Positions 923-56,441 of a stretch of DNA of 64,000 bases are shown here, one piece after another. Source of the stretch: Pelagomonas calceolata (Eukaryota); the NCBI GenBank assembly GCA_918797485.1, contig CAKKNE010000002.1, positions 1,178,001 to 1,242,000 of the forward strand, in the 5' to 3' direction. The notes beneath the pieces were generated by a model. It was not told the origin of the DNA and made no database searches. It saw nothing but the letters and a program-made list of their open reading frames with translations. Within the stretch, counting starts at the first letter, position 1; each line of letters starts with the position of its first letter. Position numbers and translations under genes: made by a program.

Positions 923-1007
923 CGATCCAGCGAGGCCTCCACGCCGTCGACGCGAGTCCCGGAAGAGAACTGTAAATAATTGTGTTTTTTCCTTAGGGAG
1001 GGAAGGG

Positions 1008-1084
1008 CCGAGTCCTGCAATAGCGGTGCGGTACCGAGTCCAGCAAATTGCGGTGCGGTACCGAGTCCTGCACGAGCGGTGCGA
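1008..1084. repeat. Three imperfect 26-27 bp tandem units (CCGAGTCCWGCA...GCGGTGCGGTA)
   Basis: Directly visible in the convergent gap between the MFS gene and RIB43A. Confidence 0.85.
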
Positions 1085-1086
1085 CC

Positions 1087-2193
1087 CTAACGATATGATT
1101 TCCCGAAGCCCGACAGCACGCCGCCCTCTTCGATGGCCCCGAACCGATCCTTGGCGATCGCCGCCTTGCGCTCCCGCTCCTCGATCATCATCTTCTGGAG
1201 GTGTTCCTGCACGTCCAACCGCTCCCGCAACTTCTCGTTCTGGGCGTGGTACTCGGCGGCAGCCACCAAGACGTTGACGTGGTCGCTCTCCGCTCTAAAC
1301 TGGGCCCCTTCGTCGAACTGCGACTCATTCACTTCTTTTCTGTACTTCTCGACGGCCTCGTTCTCTCCATAAATGCCGATGACCTGGGCCTTCGTCAATC
1401 CTCTATAATGGTCCGGCCGCACGCGGCCGTCCGCGAGGTACTCGCGCGCTTCGTTGAGCATCGGATCGTTGCGCATGCGTTCCATCTCGAGCGCGTTGCA
1501 CTCGGCGTCCAACACGGCGTCGTCCCATTCGCGCTGTTTTCTGTCCGCTACTTGGCGGTCTCTCGCCGCTCGCAGATCGAGTTGGACCTCGGCCTTGGCG
1601 CGTTTTTCTGCGGCTTCCACCTGAGCTCGTTGCTGGGAAACATGTCTTTCCCAGGCCGCAAATCTTCTGTCCTCTTCTTTCCCATCGTTCTTGTGGGCCT
1701 CCTTGAGGGCCATCTGTTCCAGACTCCAGGTCCGCATCTGGGCGTGCTGCCTTAACTTTCTCCGAGGCGCGCTTGGATCCTCCCCAACAAAGGTTTGTGC
1801 GGCGGCCTTGCCCGGTTCCAATTCGCTTGCGGACGCTAACTTGGGCAGGTCGTTCTTCGGTAAGGTGCTTCGCCGGTCCCAGTCCTGCTTGAGCGCTTGC
1901 AGCTCGGACTGCCTCTGTTCAAGGTCCGCCTGCCTTCTCTCTTCCACAATGAGTGAGACGCGCTCGGCCATGACGGCGTAGCGCTTGTCCAGTTCCCGCT
2001 CCTCGTCTCTTCGCGAATCGTTGTGCGCGATCTGGCGCGCCAGCGTCTCCACGGAGACATTGCGCCGCTTGCCCGAGTTAAAGCGCTTGGCGCGCTCGGC
2101 GTTCCGCGCCCGCCGCGCGTCGATGCGGTTTTGCTCCCTTTGGAGCGCCTCCACCTGCAGGGAGTGCACGGGGAACGCGGGAGCGTCGGCCAT
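1087..2193 (-). CDS. RIB43A: RIB43A-domain flagellar microtubule inner protein (RIBC-like)
   Basis: Coiled-coil protein with RIB43A-type motifs 'QTFVGED', 'RVRPDHYRGLTKAQ' and C-terminal 'FGKSYR'. Confidence 0.8.
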   Translation of the reverse strand: MADAPAFPVHSLQVEALQREQNRIDARRARNAERAKRFNSGKRRNVSVETLARQIAHNDSRRDEERELDKRYAVMAERVSLIVEERRQADLEQRQSELQALKQDWDRRSTLPKNDLPKLASASELEPGKAAAQTFVGEDPSAPRRKLRQHAQMRTWSLEQMALKEAHKNDGKEEDRRFAAWERHVSQQRAQVEAAEKRAKAEVQLDLRAARDRQVADRKQREWDDAVLDAECNALEMERMRNDPMLNEAREYLADGRVRPDHYRGLTKAQVIGIYGENEAVEKYRKEVNESQFDEGAQFRAESDHVNVLVAAAEYHAQNEKLRERLDVQEHLQKMMIEERERKAAIAKDRFGAIEEGGVLSGFGKSYR

Positions 2194-2415
2194 GGTGCTC
2201 TGCGTCGGCGGCGCGCGGGCAGCTGGTGTTGCCCCCGGCGCGTCGGCACGTTGTGGGCAGCCTGGCGGCGCGAGGAGGCAGCGGCGCCGATAACGCCAAG
2301 CCTCCGTTGTTAGCCAAGTTTGCCTAGAGAGTTGTGCTGCGTGCTGCTTGAAGATGGCTGTGGGCGGTTCGTGAGGCTTGCTGGTGGTCGTAGAAGCATA
2401 CGTGCAAATAACGTG

Positions 2416-3641: not shown

Positions 3642-3761
3642 AGCGACGGCGTGGGAAGTGACACGCGAGGGGGTCCGTGGTCGTACGCCAATGTGACGCC
3701 ATCGACGCGACCCTTTCGCTGGCCAGACTTCCGAGTCGGACTAGAACTTCGGACAATATTC

Positions 3762-4795: not shown

Positions 4796-5211
4796 TTAGA
4801 ACCGTGCGCGCACCGCTCGTGCGCCCACCAGGGCGGACGGGACGCAGTGCCCGTCGTGCGGAACGCTCCGTGCGGGTATGCATTCAAAACAGCGCTTGGG
4901 CCAGACTCTGGCTGTGGCAGCCTCACAGTGTGGTACATGAGCAGCGGAGCGCTCCTCGGTAGCACCGCGCCGCCACAGCAATATTACCAGGCCGTGCGCA
5001 CGCGCGGGGCAGGATCGGCCAGCTTGGGCAGCTGCACTGTGGACATACAGCAGGCAAGCGCAGCCTTGGTAGCACTACGCTGTCGCAGCGATCGCACCGG
5101 TCGTGCGCACGCGCGGGGCAGCTCTCCTGCAGATTGACGAACGCGCATCTGCGCAACTACTGGGCACCAGTGCCATATTCGCCGCACATCTCACAGCCGC
5201 GTAGCTGATCG

Positions 5212-6701
5212 ATGGCCAGCAAGGTGACACCCGTCGAGGAAGACCCGCCGCCGCAGTGGACTACGTTCGACGGCATCGATTGGTCCAAGCGCCCGGAGCC
5301 GGAGACGGACACGCACGTGCAAGTCGTGCTCCAGTTCAAGACTTGGGAGATCACAAAATTGGAGGGCAAGGAGAACCTGACCTGGAGTGGTGTGTTGGAG
5401 CTCTACTGGACCGACGCACGGCTCGACGGCTGCCCTAGGTCGCACAGTCTCCCCGAGAACATCTGGCGTCCTCGCATGACCGGTTCGGTGGGTTTCTCGC
5501 TCGGCGAGGCGGAGAAGGGCACGAAATTACCTACATTCAACGATTCAAGGAAGGAAAAAACACCGGACGGCGGCCGCATCTCGAACGGTAAATTGCAGCT
5601 CAAAGCGACCTTCGAACTGGGCAACGGTGGCTTAAATCTGAGCAACCACCTCAAACGCTTCCGAGCTTTTCCTTACGATAGCACCAGAGTGGATGTGATG
5701 GTCCAGTTCTACACGGGCCACGACGAAGAACCGGGCTCCACTGGTCTAGATTTGCAGTTTAATCGCCCGAACGTCAAGACCCGGCTCAAAGACGGGGCGT
5801 GTCAGCACATTGACTGGTTGGCGACGCGCCACTGCGACGACTTTGCGCTGAAAGCTGTCGGCTACGCTCTGGGAAGTAATCACGTGAACGTCTGGGGCAA
5901 CCCCGCGGGCTCGAGACCTTGTTTGATGTTGTCGCTACACATCGCGCGGACACCTGCGTTCTACGAGCAAAAAGGTATCCTTCCCTTGTACGCCGTCCTC
6001 GTCTTCGGGCTGCTGTGCTACTACGCCCTGGAGCCGACCGATTTACCCAGTCGCATCTCGATCATGGCGGCGCTCTTCCTGACGGTCTTCGCGATTCAGT
6101 GGATAGCTATTGAAAGATTGCCGCGGCTGCCGTTCTCGACTATTTTAGACACGGTCGCGCAGTGCGCCATCGGGGGGTTGATGATGATGCTGGTGGGCGC
6201 CTGTGTCGAAATCAAGCAGTGGGTCGCGCCATCGTCGCGTCGATCGCGCTCTTATTTCTAATTGGATTTCCCGTAGGTCGGCGCCTGTGCCTCGTACAAA
6301 TTTGCGGCGCCATCCAATGGGTTTTGTGCGCCGGGCGATTGCCCAGGGTTCAAGATGGAGCAGGCGCGGAGGGTCGATAGGTTGACGCTGATCGTGGTCC
6401 TGGTTTACGTCGTGGGCTACGCGTTCCTCTACGGATTGGTGTACCAATGCGCGAGCGTCTGTGCGGAAATCAAAGTTTTGCGGTCCACTTCCCACCTCAC
6501 TGGTTGGTTTCTGCGCAGATGAGCATCAACCGGCAATGCGGCTGCTTTCGGCCATGGACCCGAGGTAAGAGCATTGGGAACACGAGATTCGCTCCCCACG
6601 CGGGCACGGCGTGGCGGCTTCTCACGACGGAGAAGTGGGCAGAATTACACGAGAACAAATTCATGGGAGAAGGGACGCCTGTCGACGCGAAAACTTGGTA
6701 A
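5212..6701 (+). CDS. Pentameric ligand-gated ion channel (Cys-less, Pro-loop type); exons 5212-6192, 6277-6450, 6519-6701
   Basis: 'LYWTDARL', 'IWRP', 'FPYD', pre-M1 'IARTPAFY', M1-M3 with 'LPRLPFSTILD'. Removing intron 1 restores an M4-like 'ARRVDRLTLIVVLVY'. Confidence 0.85.
6193..6276 (+). mobile_element. Introner-type intron (84 nt)
   Basis: TSD GTGGGCGC (6193-6200) / GTCGGCGC (6277-6284); left TIR CTGTGTCGAAATCAA; decayed right end GATTTCCCGTAG; splicing keeps the frame. Confidence 0.8.
6451..6518 (+). mobile_element. Introner-type GC-AG intron (68 nt)
   Basis: TIRs CTGTGCGGAAATCAA (6459-6473) / TTGGTTTCTGCGCAG (6504-6518); decayed TSD GCGAGCGT / ATGAGCAT; splicing joins in frame to the 6519-6701 exon. 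Confidence 0.7.
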
Positions 6702-6726: not shown

Positions 6727-8043
6727 CTAAACAAGAGAAGCGAGCAGAGCCTCCTCCAAGAGCCCCCGCCGCTTCAGGGCCGCGGCGATGGCGTGGCCCT
6801 CGACGTCGTGCTTCACGACGCGAAGGCCGCGGCCGTCGTCCACCGCTCGACTCACCGTCTCGCCGTCGCGCGGGAGCGGCTCGTCGACGTCGTCAGGGGA
6901 GTACGCCGCCACCGCGCGCGGCAGGTACGTCAGTTGCTGCAGGTCGTCGGCGTCGCGGCCGACGTGGATCGAAATACGAGCATCTGACGCGCCGACGGCG
7001 TTCACGATGTCGTCGCGCAGGCGCTCGCGCCTCGCGTCGTCAAAATCAACGCGGTCGCACGGCGCCGGAAAGTCCCTTAGGTCGATCTGCGGCACGAACG
7101 CGACGACCGCGTCGGCGTGCCGCGCGAATCTCAGCGCCGCCGTCCCGCCCATCGAGTCGCCCAACAAAACGACCTTTTGGTATGGCTTACAAAGCTCCGC
7201 GAGGGCAGCGTCCCACCACGCGCCGCCGTCGAAATGGCCGGTCATCGGATTCGAACAGTACCAGGTCTTCGCCGTGTCGAGGGCATGCGCGACGTTCGGA
7301 AAACCAGAGGCGCGCAAAACACCGCGCCACTCGGCGCGTAGGAGTCCGTGCCAGCCGAGCGACGAGAAGGCGACGACGAGCGTCGCGTCCTTGGGAGCCG
7401 CGGGCGCGATGAGCGGCGCGAGGCCGTCGGACGCGTGCCAGACCCGGCCGATCGCCGCGGCGGCGCGGGGGCCCGCCGCGGCGACGAAGCTCCGCGTGCC
7501 GAGGGGCGATTCGGGAAACCCCAGCCGCCGCAGCACCGGGGCCAGCGCGGAGGCCAGCGCGGAAGCGAGCGCCGAGGCCAAGCGCTCGTCGTCGCTTGCG
7601 CTGGGCGCGTCCGTCAGCCCGTCCCGTCGCGTCCCGTCGAGCGCGGCGCGGCGCGCGGCGAGCGTGGCCTCGCTTGTGATCACTGTGTCGAGCGCGTCGA
7701 GCGCGGCGTCGGCGTCGGCGCGCGATAGCAGTGCGAAGCGCCCCGACGCGGCGACCGCGGCGGCCGCCTCGTCGTCGCCGCGGGCCAAGGCCCGCGCCGC
7801 GTCGTCGCACGGCTTCGCGGCGAAGAAGCGCGTCGAGAGGGCCATAACGTCCTCGTCGGCTAGCGCTCGCAGTCTTGTCTTGTCGACGGGTGTTGAGTGT
7901 GGCACCTGGCGAATGACGTCGAGGCACGCGTCGACCGACGGATTGCATTGCAGCCTGTCGATTGCGTGCTGCAGGCGTGATTGACTCGTCGAGAGAGCGC
8001 GTACCGATGCCACCCACTGTAAGAGAATGCTGATGCGCAGCAT
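6727..8043 (-). CDS. Alpha/beta-hydrolase-fold protein with N-terminal signal-like peptide
   Basis: Nucleophile elbow 'VVLLGDSMGG' and late 'EGH'; likely start MLRISILLQWVASVRA. Confidence 0.65.
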   Translation of the reverse strand: MLRISILLQWVASVRALSTSQSRLQHAIDRLQCNPSVDACLDVIRQVPHSTPVDKTRLRALADEDVMALSTRFFAAKPCDDAARALARGDDEAAAAVAASGRFALLSRADADAALDALDTVITSEATLAARRAALDGTRRDGLTDAPSASDDERLASALASALASALAPVLRRLGFPESPLGTRSFVAAAGPRAAAAIGRVWHASDGLAPLIAPAAPKDATLVVAFSSLGWHGLLRAEWRGVLRASGFPNVAHALDTAKTWYCSNPMTGHFDGGAWWDAALAELCKPYQKVVLLGDSMGGTAALRFARHADAVVAFVPQIDLRDFPAPCDRVDFDDARRERLRDDIVNAVGASDARISIHVGRDADDLQQLTYLPRAVAAYSPDDVDEPLPRDGETVSRAVDDGRGLRVVKHDVEGHAIAAALKRRGLLEEALLASLV

Positions 8044-8400
8044 TGATAGCATCAATCCATGCTGCATTAATCGCAGTATCTTGCGTGCAAAACGCGCCGG
8101 CAATGGAGGAGCAGCAGTCACTGTGTTATTGCTGAGGGTCACACTGCACCCAGTGGTTCGCGGCAGAGATCCGACAAGGATCGCAGCACGAAGCAATGAT
8201 ACAATTAGACCAACTGGCGAGCAATGCGGCGCTGAGGGCTGGTTTTAGCCGCGTGCCAGACGATTGCAGTTTTTGCTCTCGGGTTTTGGGGACACGTCAA
8301 ACCGTGTATGCACGCCGTAGAGCTATCATCCGTCGTCTTAATTCAGTGCATGTAGTCTCTGGCGCTGTGCGAACCAGCCGCGGACAGATCGGTTGCAGCC

Positions 8401-9318
8401 ATGTCTCGTTTTGCTGCAGCAGTGCTGCTGCAATGCTGCACTGCAGCTGCGCTCGAAGCACCGCTACGTGCGCTGCGTGCAGGCCTCATCGATCGCACGA
8501 CCGCGACCGCACTCATGCGATCCGCAACGGTCCGATTCGACGCCGACGGCTGGGCCCGCGACGCCGCCCGGTCGCTGCGGGACGAGGGCTTCTGCGTCGT
8601 GCGCGCGGGCGGCGCGCAGATCTCGGACCGCGTGCTCGAGCGCTGTCGCACCGTTGCGTCCGCACGTCTCTGCGACTTGCTCGCGCGAGTTGGTCGACGC
8701 GGCGTCGAGCTGTGGCGGCGGGACGACAGTGGCCTGGCTGCAGACGGCGTCGGGGTGGACGCCGCCGCGGGCGCCGAGCCGTTCCGATATCTCGAGCTTG
8801 TGCATCGGGAAGGTACTGGCCGCTATGATATGCCACTGCCCTGGTGCGTCGACGGGCAGGCCGGCGACGTGAGCCTACCTGTGGCGGACGAGGCCGCGTT
8901 CGGAGAACTTCACGCCGCAATGGATGACGTCGCACGGCCGGTGGTCAGCGAGCTGTGGCCCGTGAGCGCCGAGATGAGAGCCGGCTGCGTCATCTCGGAG
9001 CCCGGCGCGTTGGCGCAGCCGTCGCACCGCGACGGGCCCGACGGCCTCGTGACCGTGTTCGCTCCCCTCACGGCCTTCGTGCCGCGGAACGGCCCGACGG
9101 AGCTCTCGCCCGCGACGCACCGCGGCGGCGACGACTCTTCGAGCTTGGCGCCCCTGCTGCAACCTGGTGACGTGCTCCTCTTCGACTACCGGTGCCTGCA
9201 CCGCGGCCTCGCGAACCAGGGCGATTTCCGACGAGAGGTCGCGTACGCGGTCTATTCGAGGCAGGGCGTGCGAGATATCCAGAACTTTCCGAGTGCCACG
9301 ACGCTGGAGTACGACTAG
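8401..9318 (+). CDS. Phytanoyl-CoA dioxygenase (PhyH) family 2OG-Fe(II) oxygenase
   Basis: 'QPSHRD', 'NGPTELSPATH', 'GDVLLFDYRCLHRGLAN', 'R..AYAVY'; signal-like N-terminus. Confidence 0.85.
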   Translation: MSRFAAAVLLQCCTAAALEAPLRALRAGLIDRTTATALMRSATVRFDADGWARDAARSLRDEGFCVVRAGGAQISDRVLERCRTVASARLCDLLARVGRRGVELWRRDDSGLAADGVGVDAAAGAEPFRYLELVHREGTGRYDMPLPWCVDGQAGDVSLPVADEAAFGELHAAMDDVARPVVSELWPVSAEMRAGCVISEPGALAQPSHRDGPDGLVTVFAPLTAFVPRNGPTELSPATHRGGDDSSSLAPLLQPGDVLLFDYRCLHRGLANQGDFRREVAYAVYSRQGVRDIQNFPSATTLEYD

Positions 9319-9424
9319 TGTGTTCGTTCGTTCGTTCGTTTCATTTTGTTGTTCGAGTGTGTGCTAAGTACAAATTAGCTACCCGTTGGTGTTGTATGGA
9401 GTACGTCTATGGGAATCGAGCTTG

Positions 9425-9446
9425 CTAATGTCTTACAAGCCGCTAG
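9425..9446 (-). promoter_or_regulatory. CTAG-bounded upstream motif (CTAGCGGCTTGTAAGACATTAG on - strand)
   Basis: About 180 bp upstream of the sulfotransferase ATG; two mismatches to consensus. Confidence 0.65.
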
Positions 9447-9626
9447 CTAATTCACGCCAGGCGCCGGCCGCGTCTTGTCGGGTCCTTACAAGCGCTGCAG
9501 AGCGTACGCATCATATTAGAGTAGCGCATCGCTGCCGCAGTTCAACTAAGTGCCAGCCGCGCAGCGCTAGTGCCGCAATAGGTTGCTGCGACCCTCGCTC
9601 TACGCCGTCGGCGCAGCGCTCCGAAG

Positions 9627-10832: not shown

Positions 10833-10913
10833 GTAAGTGTGCTTAGTGTTTTGCGCGCTCGGCGGCGGCGTCGTCGGGCCTCCTGTCACCCAGAGCGTCG
10901 CCAAATTGCTTCA

Positions 10914-11246: not shown

Positions 11247-11332
11247 TCAAGCGCCTCTTCCCGGCGCTGATGACGGACGAGGGCAGGGGGTACGTTGTAT
11301 AATAGAGCTTAGTCCCTAACAATAACCGCGCC

Positions 11333-17005: not shown

Positions 17006-17193
17006 CGCCCCTTTCTTTTTGCTTCCCCCCTCCTCCCCTTCGGTCGTCGACTCTGGAGTACTGGGCGCACGCGGGCTGCCCAGTGTCTTCGTGCGATCAG
17101 TACTCGCGAACTACCAACTGATTTCAAGGTGCGCAAAGAATTCAACTAGTCATAAGTTTCACAAAATACCTTATCAGGAAGGAAGGACGCAAC

Positions 17194-19163
17194 CTACCAA
17201 GACGGCACCTCGTCCGCGCCGTCGACGTCGACGAGGCGGCCCGCCACGGAACCGACGCCGCCCCGGCGGTAGGCCACGCGGCCGCGCACGAAGGTCGCCT
17301 CGACGCGTCCTAGCGTAGGCACGCCCTTCAAAGCGTCGGACGACGCCGACGACGCCGCCTCGGCGTCGAACACGCAGAACGACGCGCACTTGCCTATAGC
17401 TATAGTACCGTACTGCGACAGACCCAGCGCAGCAGCTGTATTGGTGGAGAGCCACTTCGCCACATCGGTCAGGGAGAAGCCCTCGCTCAATGCCCGGGCC
17501 CAGAGAGCGGGTAACGCGTCGGCGGCCACTCTTGCACACGTGCCCGGCGCCGCGCGCGCGAAGTCACCACTCTCGGAACATTTCAACTCCGGAGCGACGG
17601 CGTCCGTCCCCGAATGGATACACTGCAACGTGCCATCCCGCAACGCGTCCCATAAAGCAGTTTGGTGGCCCGAGTGGCGCAAGGGGGGCGCGAATTTGAA
17701 GCGCGTGGCCCCGTTCGGGACCTCTTCCGCGGCTAGGAGTAGGTACAACGTCGATGTCGCAGCCGTCGGCTTTAGGTCTTCCGGCACGTGCTGCAAGGCG
17801 CCCACTGTTTGCGCTGCCGCTACATCAGTGATATGTAACCGCGACGCGTTCTTCACTCTTCTCGAGAGGAGCCATCTTAAACCGCGAGCTTGTGAGCGAG
17901 AAGGATGCGCCCTCGCTAGCAACGAGTAGTCCCTCCGAATGGCTCGTCGCGTGTTGTCGTCCGTGTCCTTGAAGATCGAAATCTCGCGCGGCCGTCTCCG
18001 CGCGAAGCGCGGCTGCCTTATAGTTGCTGACACGGACCGAGGAATGACCTCATGGTGAGAAGGTGACGACGGCTCCGATTGAGCTCTAGGACGTAGCGGC
18101 GGCGGCGGTAGCACCGGACACGTAATCTTGGACACGTCTTTGACGAGCTGGCCTAGCGACGGCGTCCGCACGAAGACCGCCCGTTCGGGAGACGAGGGCG
18201 GGAAGGTCGGTCTTCTCACAGCACAAGGTACCAATCTCTGGGGGTTGGGCACGGTCTGGGAGCGTTTGAGGGCTGGCGAGGTGAGCGGCGCAAACGACAC
18301 GGAGGGCTTCGGGCTTTCAGGAGCCTCGTAGGCGTAGGAGGCTAACTCCGCTTGCAGTAGGGACTGGACCCACGGATCTTCGTCTTCACTGGACTGTTGT
18401 TTTCTCAATCTACGAGAAGGTGATTCTTGGGCGCCGTCGAGCTCACAGAGCGGCAGGCGCGCCATCGGGCTGGCGGCCCGAGGCCTATCAGCAACAGGCA
18501 CGTGGTGGAACGGACTAGCGAGGTCCCGTTCTCCGTCGGTCAATTTTACGACGTCGGTCACGAGGACGCGCGCCTCGGCCTGCGGACGGCGACGCGTGAC
18601 TGCGCTGCTCTGACGACGTCGCGTCGATGGCGTCGACGGCGTCTCCGTGGCGCCACCTCGACGCCGTCGACGCGTCACCTCAAACAGTAAAGGTCGAAGC
18701 GACTTCCGAGGACGCCGGGGCGGGCCTGGGCCTGGAGCCACGTCTCGTCGGTTGTGGCACCATTTACATCGTCGCAGGGGGCCAAGGTCGGGACTTCCGC
18801 GACGACGGGGATGTAGGATGAGGTGGCCCTACCGGCTATTACGACGTCACAGAGCAGCGGCTCGTCATTCTGGAGTTCCGGGCCCCCGAACCTCGAAGGG
18901 AGGTGGACTACTGTCGAAAAGCCTCCTTCGACGGCGCTTTCATAAACATCAGAGCCTCTCAGGACATCGATGAGACCTGGTAAAAGAGCGCAGGCGCCGC
19001 AATCCACAAACTCGACGTCATTCGGAGGCGGCACGCGTCCGGACTCAATACGTGCTATAACACCGTCCTCTACGGTAATCGTGGCGGCCTGGACACCTTG
19101 GGGCAGGGCGACGCGGTCGGAGTAGACCGCGCAGCGGCGCGGTTGCACGTCGCCGGCGGTCAT
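17194..19163 (-). CDS. Allantoinase/cyclic-amidohydrolase-like protein, probably catalytically dead; exons 19163-18732, 18579-17194
   Basis: N-terminal 'ITVEDGVIARI...LLPGLIDV'; C-terminal 'GATRFKFAPPLR...LWDALRDG', 'GDFARA', 'KWLSTNTAAALGL', 'GRVEATFVRG'. The frames join across a 152-nt GC-AG intron. Confidence 0.75.
18580..18731 (-). mobile_element. Introner-like GC-AG intron (152 nt)
   Basis: 8-bp TSD GCCCAGGC / GCCGAGGC on the - strand; ends CCGCAG; contains CGCCATCGACGCG motifs; restores the frame. Confidence 0.7.
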
Positions 19164-19694: not shown

Positions 19695-21839
19695 ATGCCA
19701 CCCCACCAGCGCACGACACTCCTAGACGACGGCAGCCCCGGCTCCGACGCCTGGATCCCGAAGACGCCCTGGCACGAACTAAGGACGGTGATAGGCCGCG
19801 AGGGCCCCGTCGAGGCGCCGATCAATTCGCTGCGGGACCCGCGGACGCCGTGGACCGCGCGTTTTAGATATGCGCAGCACCTGACGCACGGTTGCGAAGA
19901 CGTCGAGTTAAGGACGAAATTGCTCCTGGCGCAGGCGAGGAATTTAGAGAGGACGGCGTCCTATGAGGATGACGAGGACGACGACGACGACGACGACGAG
20001 CTCGATGCTCTATTATCAGTCTTGTGGAGGGCTGGTGCTTTAACAAAAACAAATAGAGGCTTACTAGCATTAGATGCGTACGCGGCCTGGGCCACGGCGC
20101 TGCACTACGCCCTACTCCCAAACCTACTCGCCTCGACAGAAGCCCTCGAGAGCGCGAGAGGAGACTGGGAGCGCGACGTCTCGAGGAGCGGCGCGTTTGA
20201 AGGAGGTAGAGACCACATACCTCAAACCGAGGACCCCGTCGGCCTGCAGCTCCAGCGTTTTGATGACGAAAGTTCTTTATCTTCCGTGGGCTCCGTCCAA
20301 AGAGACAATTCGGAAGACTCCTACGCGCCGCCGCCGTCTCCTTCCCGTTTTGAAGAGGAGCCGGGCATCGACCAGGCGGCCTTTGCGACGGGCATGCGCG
20401 AAGTTTTAAGGGTGTGGGCCCCGGACGATCAAGCGCCTCTGCTGTATTCGTTGATCCAGGCGATCTTCGGCGGTCTGGACGACGTCTGCATGGCGAACCA
20501 CGCGCCGTACGCATTAGATACATTTAGACGGCCTTCAGACATCCCTTGTCTAGCTTTACTACCTCTGAGCTACGCGCGGGAACGGTGCGGCGAGTGGCTC
20601 AAACGCTTCGACAACGGCGCTATTCTGGCGCGCCGGGCCCAAAAGGAGTTCGAAGCGTCCCAAGCGAACCCCGACCAGCCACCTAGACACTTATTGCGAC
20701 CGACGGGGCCGTCTGTCGAGCTAAGTAAAGTGCCCAACAGAGAAAAGCGGTCCACCGTCGTCTCCAAACAGTTAGCGAGGCATTTCTATTTACCAAAGGC
20801 CACGCGTGACTGCGGCTCTGATGCGAGACGGTTTCTCTTGACGTTGAGACAGAAGCAGTCGGCGACTGTGTGGAAATCAACCAGTGTGTCGGGTGCATGC
20901 GGTGAGGAACCGACATCGACACGCCATCGAGCAGGTGTCGCGTCGATGGCGTGGAGGTCGACGAACGCGCCGTAAATTTGATTTCCACACAGGTCGGCGA
21001 TCGAGAAGGACTTTCTGCGGCGCCGGTCGGAGCGGCATCGCACGGAGCAGCCGTCTCCTTTGTGCAAATATCTACCTCCCCGAGAAGTGCTGACGCCGTG
21101 GGCTCCGGACAATTTCAATCCCGTGGGCACCAAAATGCGGGCCAAAAAACGCGACCCGCTGCGTTCCGGTCTCTTCGCGCCGGGCCCGCGCTCTGTGGGC
21201 GGCGGTCACACCGTGAAGATGGCCAAGGCGTCGCCAAAACCGCCGGAGTATTCCATCTTGACGGCGCCGCACATCCATAGAGCCACGGACATCTCGTTAA
21301 GGGGGCCCCCAACCGAGAAGAAGCTCTCGCAGCGCCAGCTGTTGAAAAGGGCCGAGCGGCGCGCGCGGCAACGACTTAGACAAGCCGTCGACGCGCGGTC
21401 CATCGGTTTATTGGTGCAGTACGGCGAGGCCCGGGGCGCCCGCGGTGGGAGCACGCAGGCCGACTCCTTCGTCGCGCCCGACGACGAGTGGCCGTCCACC
21501 ACAGTAACGACGCTGCAGCTGGATTCCCAAGTCGAGACGCACCTGTCAGCCGAAGCCCAGTACGCGCAGGGCGTCCTCGACGGTAGGGTGGTGGTGGCCG
21601 CGGACGCGGGCGCGGCGACTTATGGAATGCAGAGGCCGAGCGACGACCCTGCCGATGATAGGATCCGCGCTGAATTGGCCGAGGCGAAGCGCAAGGCCGC
21701 TTTAAGGCTGCCGCGGGCGCCGCTCGAAGAGAGAGACGCCCTGCTCCGGAAGCGCGTCCCGCCGGACGTGGACTTGCTCGTGCGGGCGCGGAACAAGATT
21801 TTGGAGGGGGCGCCTGTTTTATTACGGTACGCGGTTTAA
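19695..21839 (+). CDS. Hypothetical protein; exons 19695-20857, 20993-21839
   Basis: Two long ORFs join in frame (…RQKQ|SAIEKDFLRRRSERHRTEQPSPLCKYLPP…) on removing the TIR/TSD intron; no family recognised. Confidence 0.7.
20858..20992 (+). mobile_element. Pristine Introner: 127-bp element (20866-20992) plus one TSD copy gives a 135-nt GT-AG intron
   Basis: Perfect 15-bp TIRs CTGTGTGGAAATCAA / TTGATTTCCACACAG; perfect TSD GTCGGCGA (20858-20865, 20993-21000). Confidence 0.95.
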
Positions 21840-23535: not shown

Positions 23536-24111
23536 TGACGTGTTGAGCCGCTTCCGCGGCGGCGCGATAGGCGCCGCCGCCCATGTGACATCCTGTGCCC
23601 TCCGCCAACGTGCCGGAAAGTCCGCACGTTTACCCCCCCCAATGTACACACCGCTGTCGTGTATTGTACACATCCCCTGTCCGTAATGACCATTTCCCCG
23701 AGTCCGTGTCTTCCAGTCGCGGCGGCGGCGTGGGGGTTGCTGACGCCGTCGAGCAGACGTCGCGTCGATGGCGTGAAGGCGCCGCGCGAGTCTGAGTGTC
23801 ATCGAACCCGAACGCATTTATGCTGCGGATGATGCCACGGCGGATGGTGATTACATTTTACCCGCCGCGAATACGCTCGAGTTGTTGTTATGAAAGAAGC
23901 GGCACGCGCCCGCCGCCGATGAATCGGCGACGCGCGGTGTCTCCCCCCCAGCCCGGGCAGGGGCTCCGTCCACTAGTCCTAGCACTGTAACAAGCACGCT
24001 CGACTCGGAGACGTGAGGCCGAGGCGGTTTTTCTCCGAAGCTCGCGCGCCTCGAGGCGGGGCGCAGGCGCTCAACTACAAAACCAAAACCTTAGGACCCC
24101 AGAAAAAAAAG

Positions 24112-26115: not shown

Positions 26116-26547
26116 CCTGGAATCGCTGCCCCCGGCACTCGCGTGCGACGCAGCGTTTCGTTTCGATGCGTCGATGGCGTGGAGGCTGCCTGAGTCCTGT
26201 GCTCGCGCTGCACGAGGCGATGTGTTTGTCCTGAATTTTTTGCAATTTGGCTTCGGCGGGTTTTTCAAATTTTCAAGGGCCTCCGACGGCCGAGAGCCGT
26301 GCCAATGAGCCTTCCAGACCTCGCCGTACCGGTCCTCGGCGCGGGCCCCATCCGCTCGGCGCCTTGGTGCAAGACAAATTCGCATTTGCCTGAGTGCACG
26401 CATAAATCGCCGCGCCGCGCGGACGCTGCCCCTGCGTGTAGCATCACTCGAAAACAACGCGGCTGCGAACGCACGGCGCCCATCTCGCAAGCAGCACCCC
26501 AGGAGCAAGCGCTGCCCCACACACCCGGCACGCCGCCGCGCCGTACC

Positions 26548-44269: not shown

Positions 44270-45114
44270 ATGGCCAAGAAGAGAAAGAGTGAAACCCCTG
44301 CTGTCGCGAGCGGTGCGAGAATCCATGTTTCACGGCGCCTTACCGCGCGCGGATCGTCGCGCCGACCTCCACGCCATCGACGCGTCGTCTCCTCGGTGGG
44401 CTGGCGGTACTGGTCTTCACTGCTCGACGACAAGCCGAGGGCCGACGTCCAGTTCTACAAGTTCCTCCGTCTCGGCACGACGGGCTACCGCCGCGTCTGC
44501 GACAACATGATGGCTGTGGCCGCCCGCATCCGCAAGGGTCTGAAGGAGCTGAAGCGCGCGGACGGCACGCCCTACGTCCAGCTCCTCGACGCGGGCGACA
44601 CGAAGTGCCTCCCGGTGGTCGCCCCCTGAGTCCACGTGACCGTGTCTGCTCGATGGCGTGACGCTCTACTATCACGCAGGTCACGGCGCGCGTCAACCCG
44701 GCCCTGAACGCGCCCTACGACGACATCGACCTCCAGCACGCCATCGCCCAGGAGCACTGGTACGTCTGCGGCTACAAGATGAACATGAAGTGAGTGCGGC
44801 CGCGCGGATCACGGCGCCTTCGCGCTGGACCATCGTGTCCTCCCGGACGCCTCCACGCCGTCGCCGAGACGGCTTGATTCACCGGTCGCGTTCCACGCAG
44901 GCACCCGATCACCGAGGAGACGCACCACCTCTTCCACGACGCGGACCCGTCGACGCCCATGTTCCGCGTCGTCGTCAAGGCGAACCTGTCCATGCCCATG
45001 GCCGACAACCTCGTCGCGTCCATCAAGAAGTCCTTCGCGTTCCTCGACGCGCACGGCGCCGGCTTCAACAGCCACCCGCACCACGCGCACCAGCCGCACC
45101 ACAAGGCGTGCTAG
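44270..45114 (+). pseudogene. 5'-truncated/chimeric glutamate decarboxylase (C-terminal domain only); introns 44618-44679 and 44790-44900
   Basis: Spliced product QFYKFLRLGTTGYRRVCDNMM...CLPV|VTARV...HWYVCGYKMNMK|HP...MFRVVVKANLSMPMADNLV resembles the GAD small domain; the PLP-lysine region is absent. Confidence 0.7.
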
Positions 45115-45187
45115 GACGGCGTTGGACTCGTCTCTCGCCTTCCCCCTTCCCCTCGCCAGAGACCTAAGCTCAGTTCAACTTCGCGAC

Positions 45188-48316: not shown

Positions 48317-48575
48317 TACACTGCTCTCCTGGTGGCACTCCTTAACACTTACCTATCTGTCTTTTAGAGTACTCATTCGCGCGTTTTGATTTTCTCGAAA
48401 AACCCGACCCCCTTCCTGATTTTGCGCAATTGCGGAGTCCAGGGAGTTTGTGCCCGGGAGTGAGGCGTCCAAGTTGTCTTCAGCTGCCCCTGGCGCACCT
48501 TGGGTCCCTCTGCTCCGTCCCCAAGCTGCTGCACGTCGCGGCGCAGCGATAGCCTCATCATATCCAGGCATAAGA

Positions 48576-50912
48576 ATGAAGGCAGCCCTTTTGACGGTGC
48601 TTCTCGCGTGGGCCTCGACCGCCGAGGCGGCGGCGCCCTGCAACGGAGATAACAGCGACGCCGAGCGCATCCTAAAGTGTATCAAGCAGTTCTCGGCGTC
48701 GGAGTGGAAGGGCTGTACGCACGATGAGAAATACGAGTGCTATTGCAGCAACGACGACGGCGTGAACTACTGCTGCGGCAGTGACGACCAAGCGGAGGCG
48801 ATAGATATCTGGTCCCAGTGCCTCGGCGTCGAAGACAAGGGCTGCGACCGGAGCAAGTGTTCTTCGGCTTGGGACGACTGCTGCGCCCCGGACGGCGAGG
48901 CCGCGACCTGTCGAGACGGCTACAGTACGGTGTATACCGGCGGCGGCTGCGCGTGGTTCAACAACGGCGACTACACCTGTTGTCCGCCGGACGGCTCCTC
49001 GTCGCCCTCCGATGGGCTCTTCGTCGCTGGGCCCTCGACGGGCAATTATTATGAAGCCGTGGCGTACTGCTCAAGTATAAATGCCGAAGTCGCGGTTATC
49101 CGCAGCTCGCAAGAGAATGAAAAAGCGCGCCAGGCCTGCGGAACCAGTTCCTGCTGGATAGGACTCGTAGAAGAAGGCGGCAGCGTGGGTACTAGCCCGG
49201 GTAGTCAGGTATGGAAGTGGCCGGACGGCACCGGGCCGGCGTATGTTAACTGGCAAACCGGCGAGCCGAACAACTATGATGGCACCGACGAGCGCAACGC
49301 GATGATAAATTGCTTCGTTGAGGGCCTCTGCGGCGATGGCGGTGGCAAGTGGTACGACGCGCCAGACACTTGGGACGGAGCGAAGCCCCTCTGCCGCACG
49401 GACGACGGCTCGGGCAGCGGGGACGGTGGCATTTTTACGATCACAAGCTCAAACGGGGTCTGGGACGACTGTCCAAGCGAGTGTGCCGCCATCGGGGGCA
49501 CCTTCACTTGCATTGCCGACGAGGCGCAGAACATCCAAGCCTTGGCGGCGTTCCGGGGTCACTGTCCCGGCGGGGCGGACGATTGTGGAGCCTGGATCGC
49601 GGTGAGCGACGAGGCGTCGGAGGGCAACTGGGTCTGCACGGCCGACGGCAGCCCGCAAACCTATCAGCCTTGGTCCGCCATCGGCAATGAACCGAATGGC
49701 GGCCCCGGCGAGAACTGCGTGAATATGTGGGGCCCGAACTCGGGAAGAAACGACGGCGCGTGGAACGACTACGGCTGTACCGACGCTCGCATGCCGTGCA
49801 TCTGCAAGGGCGGCGACGCCGGCGCGGGCGCCACCTCTACTACTACGACCGGTACGAACTGCCGGAGTGACATATGCACTGTGCGTTGTCCGAGTCCGAG
49901 CCTCGTCGCGCCAATCCCACGCCATCGATGTCGGCTCGATGGGACCGAGATTTGATCGTCGACTGTCACACAGGACTACGCGGGCGACTGCTGCGCGCCG
50001 GGCTCGGAGCCGCGCGGGTGCAGCATGGCGGGGTACGAGGTCGAGTCGGACCCGTACGGCGCGTCGGGCTGGGGACCCTGCGTGAGCACCTACGGCCAGC
50101 AGAGCGTGTACCAGTGTTGCTCCGAGGAAGGCGGCTCCTCGTCGCCCTCCGAGGATCTCTTCGTCGCGGGCCCCAACGGTGGCAACTACTACGACGCGGC
50201 CGCCTACTGTTCCAGCATCGGTGCGGAAATCGCCACCATCTATAGCTCGGCGGAAAACGAAGCGGCGCGCATTGCCTGCGGGGGCAGTAGCTGCTGGATC
50301 GGACTGAGTGAGCAGGGCGGTACGGTCGGCACGGCCCCGAGCAGTCAGGTGTGGACCTGGCCGGACGGCAACGGCGCGTCGTATTTTAACTGGCAGCAGG
50401 GCGAGCCGAACAACTGGGCCGGACGGGACGAAAAGAACGCCATCATGAACTGCTGCGGCACGTGGGGCCAGGAGTCGTCGGGCAAGTGGTACGACGCGCC
50501 CTACGACTACGACGAACCGCGGCCCCTCTGCCGCACGGCCGCGGCGGGTTCGAGCTCGAGCTCGAAGAAGGGGAGCGACGACGAGCCGGATTCGGCGTCG
50601 GCGGGCTTCATCGTGGCGATCCTGCTCCTCCTGCTCGTCGTCGTTTTGGTCGGTGGGATCTATGTATTGTACAAGAAGGTCCTGAATCTCGAGGCCCAGC
50701 GCCGGCCACCGACGAATCCCGGGGCGTTCTTCGAGGTCGGCGCCGTCGAGCTGGAGACGACGAGTCACATGGCGCATCCGCCCAAGCCGGGCTACGTACC
50801 GCAATATCCCCAGACCGCCGCCGTGGAGGTGCCGGCGGCTCCGTACTCGCCGCCACGAGCCCAGGTCTTGACGGTCGAGCCGTCCGCGCCAGAACGGGGG
50901 ACCATGGTCTAG
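48576..50912 (+). CDS. Type I membrane protein with three C-type lectin domains; intron 49881-49973
   Basis: Signal peptide; 'CWIGL', 'NWQTGEPNN', 'EPNGGPGENC...WNDYGC', 'NWQQGEPNN'; TM 'FIVAILLLLLVVVLVGGIYVLY'; a 93-nt GT-AG intron joins the ORFs in frame. Confidence 0.88.
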
Positions 50913-51066
50913 GCGCGGTCCGGTCGTCGCGCGAAGCCTTCCTCTGGCCCTTTCCCAGGTGTTTATAGTACTTTCCTTACAAAAACCTTTACAAATAGCC
51001 CGCAAACCCGTCTCAAACCTGTCGACGAGACTCGTTTGGCCCGGCTACCGCTCGTTATTAATTTTC

Positions 51067-51086
51067 CTAGTGTCTTACACCGCTAG
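51067..51086 (-). promoter_or_regulatory. CTAG-bounded upstream motif (CTAGCGGTGTAAGACACTAG on - strand)
   Basis: Consensus minus 2 nt; about 256 bp upstream of the glycosyltransferase ATG. Confidence 0.68.
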
Positions 51087-51341
51087 TTTTGAGTCACTCT
51101 GATCAACGACAGCGTCGATAGGGAACCGCTACAGGTTACCAGCTGGGCGCTGAGCTCATTTCCGCGTCACTTATTTGCGGCGATACCAAGAGAAGCTCCG
51201 CCTGCGGCTGCGGAGCCTGGACAGCTTTGCAAGGTCAGGGCTAGCTGCAAGCCTTTGTGAGCCGCGCGCCGCACACGAATCGCCGCGCGCGCTGCACACG
51301 AGCCGCACGACTGCGCCGCCGCGCCGCAGCGCACCAACACG

Positions 51342-54195
51342 ATGCGCCGCGTCGCCAGCGCCCCGTCGGGCAACCTGCGGAGCGGCTCGTTGCTCCCTTT
51401 GCAGAGACGCGACTCGCCGCGGATGAAGGCAACACCAAGCAGGTGGGCGCGGCTCTCGCGCCAGGCGCCGCGGTTGTGTGGTTTCCTGATTGTCTTATTA
51501 GTGATAGCGCGGACCTTCGTGCTCCCGCAAGCCGTGCGCAGCGAGCGGAGCGAGCACCCCGATGCCTTCCACAATGCGGACAAAGTGAGCTGCCCCCGCT
51601 GGTACGACCAGTCCTCCGGCGCGACCATCAAATTACCAAGAGGCGACTGGAAGGTCGGCAAGCACCACCGGCCGCGCGTGTTTTTGTACAGCGTCTTTGG
51701 TTCTTCGTTGGAATCCACTCGACTCGCGAAGCACTTCCTCGACTTTTATGTGAGGAGGGCGGGCATCGCACCGGAGCGGATCCACGTCACGGTCCACGCG
51801 TCGCACGAGCACGACGAGCACGCCCAGACCCTACAGAATCTATTAGATAAGAATAGAGTGCACTACGACTTGTGGATCGGCACGTTCACGTCCGAAACCA
51901 AAGCGTGGCATCGGGACAAGCTCACGCAGAAGACGCTCGACAAGGACGACTGGTTAATAGTCGCGGACGTCGACGAGTTGCACCAGTTCCCTGGAGTTCG
52001 AGCACATGACGGCTCCGCGACGATAGACACGCCGTCGGACGGCACGGCGCCCGTCGACGCCTTTTTGGCTCATGTGGCCGAACGGGGCGCGAATTACGTA
52101 TTGGCGGCGTGGGAGGACCGCGTCGCCGAGGGCGGCCACCTGAACCACATCCAGGACAAAGTACCTCTAGAAAGGCAGTTTCCGTTGCGGTGCCGCATGA
52201 CGGAGTGGACGACGCCGGAAAAGACGTCGCTGATCACGTCGTTTTTGCCGAAGGCCGAGGACCACAAGGTCATCGCGTCGCGGAATTACCTGAAGGTTCA
52301 CAGGAGCGCGCATAAAATACGGTGGGCGTCGTACTGGGAGGCGATCTTCACGTTCGGGCGCGTGTCGTGGCCGACCGTCTACGTACCTCGAAGTCACGGA
52401 GGGCCTTTTACCGCACCCGTCAGTGAATCGGAGCCGAAAATGATCTTGAACTTGATGCGGTCGCCTCGACGTCGTCGATGCGGCCGCCAGAGAGCCCACG
52501 CGTCGTGTCGCGACGGCTTCTGCTCGCGGACGTCTTCGTGAAACGTGGGTCCACGCAGGTCAAGTCGCAGCACTACAAGTGGATCGCTGGTTTAGTACCT
52601 TATCTAGATAGACGAGTGAGAGTATATGAGAAGTGCGGCCTGCTGTGGTCCTACGAGTCCGCTGCTGTTGTAGATAGGTTAGAATCGTACGGTGGTCGCG
52701 TGTGTGTGACGTGTGGCGAGTTGGCCTGTGCCCACGCTTCACCCGTAGAACGGAGGCGTGTCGCCATCGTCACGTCCGTGTGGGACGAGCATATCGATGG
52801 CGTGTCGATCACGATGAATCGCGTCGCGACCTATTTAGAACAGTCTCCCGTCGAGGATGTATTAGTATTGACGCCGCACGACCCGCAAGTGCCCGAGCCC
52901 GCCGTGAAAGGTTTAGACAGAATACCGAAATTTAGTACCGGAAGTATACCGGTCTTCGCTTTGATTGGAAGGAACGACTACGTCATGGGCGCGCCTCTCG
53001 CCAAGGCGTCGTCCGATGTTCTGACGTCGTACGACCCCGACGTGGTGCATCTCGTGTCACCGGACATCCTTGGGTTCTCGGCGCAAAGGTGGGCGCGCGA
53101 CAACGGGGTCTGCGCCGTATGTACCTACCATACGCAGATCGACCGGTATGTGCGCTTTTATACCGCCAAGCATTCCTTGTTGGACAAATTACGGCCTAGA
53201 ATAGCCGTCCAGAAGCTGTTCTCGACGTTCTACGGCGGCTGTGACGTGGTAGCAGTCCCAAATTCGGCCATCGCCGATAAGCTAGTGCTGAAGATGGGCA
53301 TCCCCCGCGCGAAGATCGGGCTGTTTCCGTATTGTCGCGGCGTCTTGTTTTTGCTTCCGTGCGCGGCGATGCCGTCGACGCGACGCCGCCGCGGTGGCGT
53401 AGGAGTACTCGATCGTGACGATCGCGGCGATGGCGTGCGGTGGGCTTTACACCACCTCGACGCCATCGATGCGGCGGTGCGCAGAGAGAGGCGGGACTCG
53501 AACACAAAACCACCTCCACGCCATCGTCGTGACGCCATAAATCACACAGGCGCGGCGTCAACGCGACGCAGTACAACCCCGGGAAGCGCTCGAAGGCACT
53601 AAGAGCGAAGTTCGGCGCGGACGACAGTAATGTGGTCGTGCTCTGGGCCGCGCGCTTAGTTCCCGAGAAGGGCGCGGACCTCTTCGCGGACGCGTTCGTC
53701 GCCTTGTTCAACAACAAGACGCTGCTCGAGCACTACCCGGGCGTGATAGATAGGATTCGGATCGTGGTCGTCGGCTCGGGCCCGTCGCGGGCCCAGATGG
53801 AGGCGGCGCTGCCGCCGGACCGGACGGTGTTCTTCGGGCATCTCGTGGGCGACGAGCTGCGGGCCGCGTACGCGTCGTCGGACGTCTACTTCTTCCCGTC
53901 GCACACGGAGGCCTTCCCGAATACGTTGCTCGAGGCCCAGGCGTCCGGATTAGCTGTCTTGGCGCCGGCCTACTCCGTGAACCGAGCTCTGGTGCCGGCG
54001 GGCTCGGGCCATCTGGTGGACGAGCACGCGGGGGCCGAGGAGTTCGCCGACGGGCTCTTCACGTTGTTGCGCGACCCGCGGTATCGGAGGGCCATCGGCA
54101 AGGAGGCCGTGCGGGTGGCGCGGAACCGGACGTGGGCGAAGGCTTTCGACGGGCTTACGACGTGCTACGATCGGTGCAAGGCGCTGCGGCGGTAG
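51342..54195 (+). CDS. Type II membrane bifunctional glycosyltransferase (GT-A/GT2-like plus GT4); introns ~52419-52558 and 53329-53549
   Basis: TM 'LCGFLIVLLVIA'; DxD 'WLIVADVDEL'; GT4 'VAIVT...IDGVSIT', 'FP|RGVN', 'FPSHTEAFPNTLLEAQASGL'. The first intron donor could alternatively be 52383. Confidence 0.8.
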
Positions 54196-54424
54196 CGTGT
54201 TCGCTTGGCGCGCCCCGCGAACTAATTACTATGATTGTGAGGAATTTTGGACCCCTTTCAGTTGCCGGCGCCGCGGGACGACGCGCGTTGTCTTCGGTTC
54301 CTACCCCCCTCTCGTTTTTCGCTTTCTGAGAGAGCGTGGCTTATCTTTGCTAACAAAACGGCGGATGCACGGAGCGATCTGTCAATACCCGCGCGCGGTT
54401 TTGCTCATTGTGGGCTTTGTCTAG

Positions 54425-54667
54425 CGGCTCCGGCCTGAGGTCTGTCAGGAGCAGAACTGGCTCGAGTGCCGCGACATGTTCGAATGCCTCCGGGCGTTGG
54501 GGTCGTGGAAGGCGGTTGCGCGACGCCCGCACGTAAAAATGCTCGTCCTGCGGGCCCTCGTCGTCCGCGACCGGGCGACGACGCGCGACGTGACTCTACG
54601 CCGACTCGTGACGCTGCCCGACGTGGTCCTCTGGCGCGTGCTGAGCTTCTGGCGCGCGACGGAGTAG
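54425..54667 (+). pseudogene. Orphan C-terminal fragment resembling tails of ankyrin-type family proteins
   Basis: Reads ...GSWKAVARRPHVKMLVLRALVVRDRA...LPDVVLWRVLSFWRATE*; preceded by an in-frame TAG at 54422. The family assignment is from recollection only. Confidence 0.45.
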
Positions 54668-54756
54668 TCCACATGTGAAGCCAAATGTGACTAACGTACT
54701 AGTAGTATGACTCGGAAAGTCTAGAACTGGGGAACCCACACTTTAGCGCGGACCCC

Positions 54757-56441
54757 CTAGATGCCCCCCTTCTTCGCGCGGTAGAACTGGAGGTATGACA
54801 TGTGCTCATCCCCACCACCCTTCAGGCCCTGGACGAACTCCCAGGACGACTCCGAGACGAGGTCGTCGTCAAAAACGAGCCACGACCCATCTTCCCTTTT
54901 GACCCAGCCCATGTAGTGGCCGCCGTCCGCCGACCTTCCTTTGTGTGTGACAATAGCAAAGAGCTCGTAGTGGCCCTGGAAGTCCTTGTCGAGGCCGCAC
55001 GATTCTAGTAATTCCCGGTTCTTCACGGCACTATCGTCCTCCATGGACAACGCGAGAGCGGCAGCTAAATCTTCATCGGGCTCCTCGACGTCCATCTTCG
55101 CCTTTTTTTCCTCGGGCTCGTCCTCAGTCTTCTTGATGTCGACGCGCTCGCCGAATTTGTCGCGGTTCGCCTTGATCGCTTTTTGGAGGTCCGCGTTGCA
55201 GTAGGGGAACACGTCCAACGTGTCCGTGAAGGACACAGGACGCATGATCTTGCACTTGACGCCCGTGTGGTCGGCGCTGTCGGGCGTCGCCTTCCAGAAG
55301 AAGCGCATGTACTGCACACATAAGTACGGCGAGAGCTTGGCTACTGATGAAGTCTTCGTCCAGACCGCGTCCCTGCCCAGGATCTGGGAGCGCTTTTCTA
55401 AAGAGCCGACGAGTCCTAATTTCAAACCCTCGAACAAGTGCGACACATTTTCTCCCACGGTGCCTCCTTGAATGTTGCACACGAGCTTGCGCGCCGTGTC
55501 CTTGCGCACCACTTCGGGCTCCTCCGTGCATTCCGGGCAACTAAGACGTTCTTCCAACTCCAAGCCAAAGAGCTTATCCACAATATTGGAATCGCCGTCC
55601 TTTAATGAAGACGCTAAGGTAGCTAACAACGACGAGTACAACTCCTCCGCATCCTGCTGCGCGAAGCCTCCCCCTCGGCCCCGCTGCGCGAACTGCGGGA
55701 AGGCACTTCTCAGGGTGGCAACGAACGTCGCCGGCTCGACGGGCTTCGTCGAGGCATCTAGCTGCGCGTAGGTCGAGTTGAGGGCACCGGCCAAATCTTG
55801 AGATTGCGTCTGTTTGAGGGAATCGCGGAGCTCAGGGACCGCTCTTAAACATTGTAAGGTCGAGTTCATGTAGCACGTGTTCCCCAAATTGGCGAAGCCC
55901 GCCGGTAGGACTAATCCACTTTTAGCTTGGTCCTCCTCCTGCGCGGAACCGAGACACTGTTGTGAGACGCGGCGCGTCGACGGCGTGGCATCGCGTCGAC
56001 GCCATCGACGCGACCACGGCCTCTCTCGCGGGGCGCGTCGGCCCGACGCGGTTCGAAACAGCTCAAAATTGGGAAAAAAAACACCCACGACCTCGTCTCA
56101 TGAAGAAGACGCGCGCCGATGGCGTCAAGGCCCCATGGAAGACGCGGACTCCGTACCTTCATGTCCTCCAAAAACTTCGTCTCGACCTTGGGCTTGAGTA
56201 AGACGTCGGCCGTGCCCATGAGCGTCACGTTCTGGCCGTCCTTCAAATCCATGGCCATGCCACTCTTCAAAACGCCGCGCCAGGCCCCGCGGGCCATGAG
56301 CTTCTGGCGCGCGACCGGGACGCCCGTTTTTGATTGGAGGTCGTTAAATAATTCATCTGGCGTTTGATTGGGCTTGATCTCGCAGGGCACGTTCTCCTTG
56401 CCCCACTTCACGTTAATTTTTATGGTCGCCATGGCGGACAT
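54757..56441 (-). CDS. USP14: Ubiquitin-specific protease USP14/UBP6; exons 56441-56157, 55938-54757
   Basis: UBL 'INVKWGKE...TGVPVARQKLM...LMGTAD'; Cys box 'GFANLGNTCYMNSTLQ'; 'QQDAEE'; His box 'THKGRSADGGHY'; 'GGGDEH'; 218-nt GT-AG intron. Confidence 0.95.

Follow-up and report, generated by a model that had tools for sequence, protein, structure and literature searches.

Most introns in a 64-kb window of the Pelagomonas calceolata genome (64,000 nucleotides; contig CAKKNE010000002.1, positions 1,178,001 to 1,242,000) contain some version of a 14–19-bp motif. There is good evidence that it is of mobile origin, since it forms an internal module of a 203-bp family of introner elements (IEs), which have terminal inverted repeats (TIRs) and an 8-bp target-site duplication (TSD), and of several derivative families. 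In older introns and at gene ends, the motif outlasts the element's own ends. Going by the sequences, we lean towards the explanation that the motif is an internal repeat of these small intron-forming elements and probably a site bound by their putative transposase, which would account for its presence in all deletion families. The introner family and its design are already known; what appears to be new is that the motif is common to several differently built families, that it is abundant, and that it persists where TIR and TSD are gone. The window is eukaryotic, gene-dense and of 63.6% GC, with a CpG observed/expected ratio of 1.31; the published genome comprises six chromosome-scale contigs with 63% GC (PMC9481584).

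We scored the motif as a 19-mer (CCTCSACGCCRTCGACGCG), as its 14-mer core, and as a 10-bp core (ACGCCRTCGA). The 19-mer matches the window four times exactly, nine times with at most one mismatch, and 13 times with at most two. Markov simulations of orders 2–5 (40 each) gave a mean of 0–0.7 and a maximum of two matches at the last threshold; the motif noted in an initial annotation is real and far above chance. Classed by our own gene models into introns (1,330 bp), non-coding DNA (11,411 bp), and coding sequence (CDS; 51,259 bp), these 13 matches comprise nine in introns, four in non-coding DNA, and none in CDS; the corresponding counts for the exact 10-bp core are 10, 6, and 2. Motif density is approximately 90-fold higher in introns than in CDS. 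Base composition is similar in the two classes (62.3% GC and 150 CpG/kb in introns; 64.6% GC and 137 CpG/kb in CDS), so the motif is not equally frequent in comparable coding sequence, the outcome that the initial annotation had named as telling against it. The looser 14-mer (at most one mismatch) does match CDS four times, compared to 0.6 in shuffles.

Exact 19-mer matches lie at 936, 18656, 20939, and 44366, those with one mismatch at 18620, 26167, 53455, and 55994, and those with two at 44850, 52464, 53513, and 56112, the last being an addition to the sites listed previously; there are three mismatches at 55973. Every previously listed site is present in some form, but 20921, 23743, 44645, and 49917 retain only the 10-bp core (6–7 mismatches to the 19-mer) and the match at 3691 has four mismatches. 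Five sites had been described as lying outside introns. Three of them are the only motif-only sites in the window, whereas the other two proved to be pieces of the element:

936..954, plus strand: motif-only site directly after the stop codon of an MFS gene.
3696..3709, plus strand: core-only site (motif at 3695) flanked by convergent gene ends; an inverted partial copy of 9 bp lies at 3644.
26167..26185, minus strand: motif-only site ~50 bp upstream of a start codon and a few bases inside an inferred transcript 5' end (eight molecules end at 26189).
23743..23786, no strand assigned: motif with inverted partner, an isolated hairpin piece of the element (45 bp; nhmmer E 3.5e-8) between two convergent gene ends.
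44312..44429, plus strand: decayed left half of the element with a left TIR remnant and the exact motif at 44366, matching positions 2–117 of the element model (nhmmer E 1.3e-16), in front of a truncated gene.

The truncated gene (44270–45114) is in frame with an upstream open reading frame (ORF) that crosses 44312–44429, and RNA coverage there is low. Its 3' part presumably encodes a glutamate decarboxylase-like protein; the pieces have no match in Pfam.

RNA was mapped onto 40 of the 64 kb (7001–27000 and 37201–57200) and showed seven introns among the joints listed; four more, two of which (6193–6276 and 6451–6518) lie outside the mapped stretches, were predicted from reading frames:

20858..20992, plus strand: young introner intron, RNA joint in 18 raw reads and in contigs of two runs.
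18580..18725, minus strand: old intron with a GC donor, RNA joint in 20 reads.
49881..49973, plus strand: intron whose 3' end is TIR-like and which has a single exact 10-bp core (49919), RNA joint in 69 reads.
52419..52558, plus strand: intron with a palindromic motif variant at 52462–52482, RNA joint in 23 reads.
53329..53549, plus strand: old intron of a glycosyltransferase gene, RNA joint in 41 reads.
55939..56156, minus strand: old intron of a ubiquitin hydrolase gene, RNA joint in 21 reads.
17129..17177: RNA-shown, AT-rich intron of 49 nt.
6193..6276, plus strand: introner intron predicted by frame enumeration and missed by the initial annotation; TSD 7/8, left TIR with one mismatch, degenerate motif.
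6451..6518, plus strand: introner intron predicted by frame enumeration, with both TIRs and no motif, a counter-example.
44615..44679, plus strand: intron predicted from the reading frame, donor uncertain (44615–44621), with an antisense 10-bp core.
44790..44900, plus strand: intron predicted from the reading frame, a decayed derivative of the 203-bp family with the motif at 44850.

The motif or its core occurs in six of the seven RNA-shown introns and in three of the four predicted ones. The claim that it is found in most introns therefore stands, with some version in nine of 11; at most one mismatch in the 14-mer is seen in just four. Because random 190-nt windows contain a match with at most two mismatches 13% of the time and with at most three 39% of the time, the weakest intron cases carry little weight alone. 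No RNA joint was among those listed for 44615–44679 or 44790–44900, where coverage is low.

The intron at 20858–20992 shows the intact arrangement. A perfect TSD (8/8) flanks it, of which the copy at 20858–20865 (GTCGGCGA) supplies the GT donor and the second lies at 20993–21000. The TIRs (20866–20880 and 20978–20992) have no mismatches, and the latter ends in AG. The full motif (20939–20957, minus strand) stands opposite an inverted core (20921–20930, plus strand), and the reported agreement of 20921–20957 with 23743–23779 at 33 of 37 positions was reproduced. A metagenome locus (L096) carries this intron at 134/135 identity, the sole ortholog found of any window intron. About 3,900 poly(A) reads cover 20866–20960, compared to ~30x coverage of the host gene, with about three quarters in one direction; this pile-up indicates that element copies of other loci, as retained introns or in untranslated regions (UTRs), are abundant in RNA.

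By contrast, the three old introns at 18580, 53329, and 55939 have no left TIR and a TSD of only 2–4/8, yet keep 3–5 motif copies at 0–2 mismatches, in agreement with the earlier suggestion that the motif persists without TIR and TSD. The first, without TIRs and with a TSD of 4/8, has three near-perfect core copies (19-mer at 18620, minus, and 18656, plus). The second (TSD 2/8) has five at no more than two mismatches in both orientations and a ~60-bp tail-to-tail block in common with loci L043, L010, and L023. The third (TSD 2/8) has four at the same threshold, and its body is homologous to the interior of a 453-bp long form of the element (L054); the nearest named relatives of its host gene (54757–56441) are from Aureococcus (65%), Aureoumbra, Chrysophaeum, and another pelagophyte. 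The intron at 44615–44679 has a block in common with a second derivative family (L063, L065). A common mobile origin of most introns, as initially proposed, is backed beyond the motif for ~7 of the 11. For 49881–49973 and 52419–52558, homology searches gave nothing beyond the motif and a TIR-like 3' end, and the spliced intron 17129–17177 has neither motif nor core and nothing in common with the others.

We delimited the element in marine metagenomes, where an exact 21-mer scan of 5/64 parts of the collection yielded 120 loci (an estimated ~1,600 stretches across the collection); genome-wide estimates rest on these loci, all chosen by that one 21-mer. Of the 97 exact motif matches with enough flank, at least one TIR accompanies 86 and two 15-bp TIRs enclose 67; 66 are followed within 40 nt downstream by an inverted partial copy, which in the ~203-bp form lies ~7 bp after the motif. 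The length distribution of the 72 elements that could be delimited has its peak at 203 bp and trails off into shorter deletion forms. Their 8-bp TSDs have a mean identity of 0.85, compared to 0.16–0.38 at other lengths, and are perfect in 31 cases, and the motif lies ~52 bp from the left end (exactly 52 bp in 30 elements). The 203-bp form has two motif copies, both close to its left end, and the 453-bp form, which links two element bodies, has four, two direct and two inverted; none lies near the right TIR.

The family has the hallmarks of introners derived from miniature inverted-repeat transposable elements (MITEs), i.e., non-autonomous DNA transposons that carry one splice site and co-opt the other from the TSD (PMC9860276, PMC11282704): it is multi-copy, combines TIRs with a TSD of fixed length, co-opts one splice site, and is spliced (20858–20992). 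In all 70 elements with a TSD of at least 6/8, the TSD starts with GT or GC in one or both orientations (~29% expected from composition), and it does so in both in 20 of the 70 (8.5% expected), which suggests a weak palindromic target preference. Whichever way the element is oriented, this donor comes from the TSD and the AG acceptor from the TIR, so that splicing out the inserted intron leaves the gene restored, as in the known introner design.

Huff, Zilberman, and Roy reportedly described MITE-type introners of Aureococcus anophagefferens and Micromonas in 2016. The splice-site design is alike, and the accessible accounts of those introners describe no internal binding motif. A family with an 8-bp TSD is illustrated for an Aureococcus species (PMC9860276, Fig. 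2F legend). Our 203-bp family is very likely, by comparison of descriptions rather than sequences, the one reported from P. calceolata, with 956 putative IEs, an intron length peak at ~210 bp, conserved TIRs, GT/GC donors, and an AG acceptor (Guerin et al., 2022; PMC9481584). The accessible text of that article contains nothing on an internal motif, on sharing across families, or on persistence without TIR or TSD, and the word "motif" does not occur in the preprint text or supplement file 2. The accessible part of the Gozashti 2022 supplement lists families from Pelagomonas metagenome-assembled genomes (MAGs) with TSD and TIR entered as "?" and has no match to our motif or TIR strings; the Gozashti 2025 main text mentions neither Pelagomonas nor Aureococcus. 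The motif appears undescribed in the accessible introner literature on Pelagomonas, Aureococcus, and Micromonas; Huff 2016 and the logo or Supplementary Data 3 of Guerin 2022 may show it.

Two published systems resemble the motif in part. In Micromonas pusilla, IE families are built of motifs, some of them universal to all families, and there are 463 degenerate remnants, which usually keep a single motif and are located close to UTRs or within other introns, without exception outside CDS (Verhelst et al., 2013; PMC3879977). Motif-C of the IE-A elements in this alga sets a precedent for a universal IE motif persisting on its own close to UTRs and inside introns. However, it is ~50 nt long, in a different lineage and of different sequence, whereas the Pelagomonas motif is 14–19 bp, forms inverted pairs, and occurs in several copies per intron; the Pelagomonas host introns, unlike the motif-C remnants, are still spliced. 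The second parallel concerns hAT elements and the Emigrant MITE, for which transposase binding to subterminal repeats has been published (PMC4890040, PMC1636448). They too combine short TIRs and, in hAT, an 8-bp TSD with short repeats that lie internally, in either orientation, a few tens of bp inward of the terminus. The copies here are fewer (2–4), longer, and mostly near one end, and the likeness is one of anatomy, binding being shown only in those systems. Short internal repeats in both orientations, near an end and kept by deletion families, nevertheless resemble transposase-bound subterminal repeats, and the subterminal transposase-binding site suggested by the initial annotation would fit this anatomy.

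The abundance of the motif was quantified in DNA not selected for it. With 260 bp masked around each selected match, 258 kb of flank remained, in which the 14-mer matched 59 times in 51 clusters (two duplicate loci, dropped only from later analyses, are still in this count), the TIR (both ends) 25 times, and other internal 14-mers mostly 0–7 times. Counts in the window were 14, 4, and 0–1, respectively. Motif matches outnumber those of other internal segments ~10–15-fold in such unselected DNA. Stop-free frames as a stand-in for coding sequence took in 88% of the flanking bases and were uninformative. At least four different element bodies have the motif in common, judging by locus contexts, and its inverted copy likewise recurs in differing bodies. 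In 49 seed matches without TIR, conservation is confined to ~14–17 bp and ends a few bases from the core (chance alone would yield ~21 of 79 seeds). The core CGCC-TCG is largely spared (2 of ~40 mismatches at its six positions), so that the mismatch profile is strongly non-uniform, and CpG-type transitions are not prominent among the mismatches.

This excess over the TIR and other internal segments, the narrow conservation, and the motif-only sites at 936, 3695, and 26167 would be expected if the motif were a cis-element of the host, recognized by one of its DNA-binding proteins such as a chromatin or nucleosome organizer or a general regulatory factor. Introners would have captured this site or seeded it into most introns and many gene ends (~5,000–6,000 clusters, if one per 5–6 kb holds for a ~32-Mb genome), and the host would have domesticated it, with selection keeping and multiplying copies in old introns and UTRs after the element ends decayed. 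We regard this as a tentative and rather unlikely account. Four old copies found by their body alone speak for it, with bodies 64–81% alike and 12–14 of 14 motif positions retained (2 of 56 mismatches, P ~0.03 at 12% divergence), but once the query copy is included the same test gives 6 of 70 mismatches and P = 0.25. Similarly, one homologous gene pair of 79% identity agrees at 66 of 67 positions in the motif block, but an adjacent stretch is nearly as conserved, which makes patchy gene conversion possible. In the 53329-type family, motif and spacer diverge about equally by eye.

Old introns frequently have 3–5 motif copies, and the motif overlaps two alternative inverted repeats in the element consensus. 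In one young element (L026:1483–1744; TSD 8/8), the motif segment is amplified several times in tandem and inverted orientation. These observations agree with a motif that is functionless once inserted. Its sequence, quasi-palindromic and prone to repetition, would then be restored through template switching, local duplication, and ectopic conversion templated by the thousands of other copies, and its conservation would be only apparent. Local template switching, however, equalizes copies within a locus and cannot hold distant loci to one consensus; single copies without a partner (936, 26167, and many TIR-less matches) are also near-perfect; and the mismatch profile is strongly non-uniform. 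We therefore consider regeneration alone improbable.

Even less probable, in our judgment, is a role at the RNA level, whether in enhancing splicing, in serving as a branch-point-like signal, or in forming a hairpin that aids intron removal. The ~90-fold intron enrichment, the common inverted pairs, and the core that a young element displays in both directions of transcription are consistent with such a role, and the folds of introns 18580, 20858, and 44790 are better than those of shuffled sequences (z −2.1 to −3.3). Yet z ≤ −2 was reached in just four of 12 folds, one of them motif-free: the intron at 6451 folds equally well through its TIRs. The two orientations are about equally frequent, at 19 and 23 among young elements and 11 each among older matches, and the distance to acceptor-like sites varies from 8 to 95 nt (heuristic acceptor call with 19% background). 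Moreover, intron 17129–17177 is spliced without the motif, and the motif persists outside introns. The splicing signal offered as an alternative by the initial annotation is accordingly disfavored in its sequence-specific form, as is a conserved RNA hairpin. With no strand preference, no fixed acceptor distance, and inconsistent folding, the motif most likely acts as double-stranded DNA.

The transposase-site explanation that we favor envisages insertions made by a cut-and-paste transposase acting in trans, internal deletions that produced shorter families, and continued mobility of only those families that kept the motif. If only these remained mobile, the motif would mark common mobile ancestry for most introns of the window. 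We hold less firmly that, after insertion, the motif may decay more slowly than TIR, TSD, and body and become locally duplicated, which would point to an added DNA-level constraint (a host binder) or to homogenization. One observation in favor of the transposase-site explanation is that the unselected inverted partner is 96% identical to the consensus, compared to 87–91% for its neighbors.

Several findings weigh against the favored explanation. An AT-rich internal segment (151–160) is also 96% conserved, equal to the partner arm. Of 12 elements chosen by TIR and TSD alone, five lack the motif even when two mismatches are allowed, including two whose TSD is perfect. Neither a transposase nor an autonomous element turned up: the 20 window ORF pieces have no transposase match in Pfam, and the longest element in the loci is 453 bp. 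The 8-bp TSD and short TIRs are as in hAT elements, in which a transposase of 600–800 amino acids lies between matching TIRs, but hAT TIRs begin with (C/T)AG whereas this element begins with CTG and ends with CAG; we have not filed it as hAT because of this difference and the missing transposase. Lastly, a role in transposition alone leaves unexplained both the motif-only UTR sites and the near-perfect copies that persist in introns where TIR and TSD do not exceed background. The motif was possibly kept later by a host factor, and binding by a host protein can coexist with a transposase site.

Viral contigs gave no match to the 19-mer; three TIR and 30 17-mer matches there were set aside as chance, with 0–2 motif copies each and no surrounding element. 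Prokaryote genomes gave a single match of 35 bp at a contig end, where a bacterial MAG contig terminates in the right end of the element (L121:2639–2673; 34/35 bp), probably an assembly chimera. On a contig of 32% GC that looks giant-virus-like by eye and carries a major-capsid-like gene, 22 bp directly after a stop codon match the motif region exactly (L154:4999–5020); no TIR is present, and the match is probably due to chance.

The window has further features apart from this family. A second, unrelated motif (CTAGCGGCCTGTAAGACACTAG-like) occurs eight times (4774, 9425, 12870, 35109, 37658, 43235, 45199, and 51067), each time in an intergenic gap upstream of a gene, and the top over-represented 9-mers in window and flanks derive from it; it is likely a host promoter element. 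A different MITE-like insert (13275–13403) has perfect 18-bp TIRs, an 8-bp direct repeat (13267–13274 and 13404–13411), and its own internal palindromic repeat (GTAGGTACCTAC), and lies within an ankyrin-like gene with almost no RNA coverage. In a whole-window inverted-repeat scan, GC-rich chance pairs swamped the signal. In two repeat-rich regions (42170–43100 and 11045–11170), many divergent RNA reads accumulate that stem from other parts of the genome, a common gene-end fragment among them. The gene at 45437–48316 encodes 959 amino acids, and members of its cluster are named exodeoxyribonuclease V alpha subunit (RecD-like helicase).

Because homology is lost quickly, it is a persistent question whether ordinary, unique-looking introns originated as introners that have since decayed. 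With a short marker that survives longer than TIR and TSD, the introner-derived share of all introns in one genome could be counted; the motif is found in nine of 11 window introns, compared to 956 recognized IEs among ~7,500 introns of P. calceolata. It would also serve as bait for finding the transposase or a host factor. If the host keeps the site, it would represent transposon-spread regulatory DNA in an abundant marine alga, and if domestication were true, the motif would be both a barcode that identifies most "old" introns as introner fossils and a new genome-wide cis-element.

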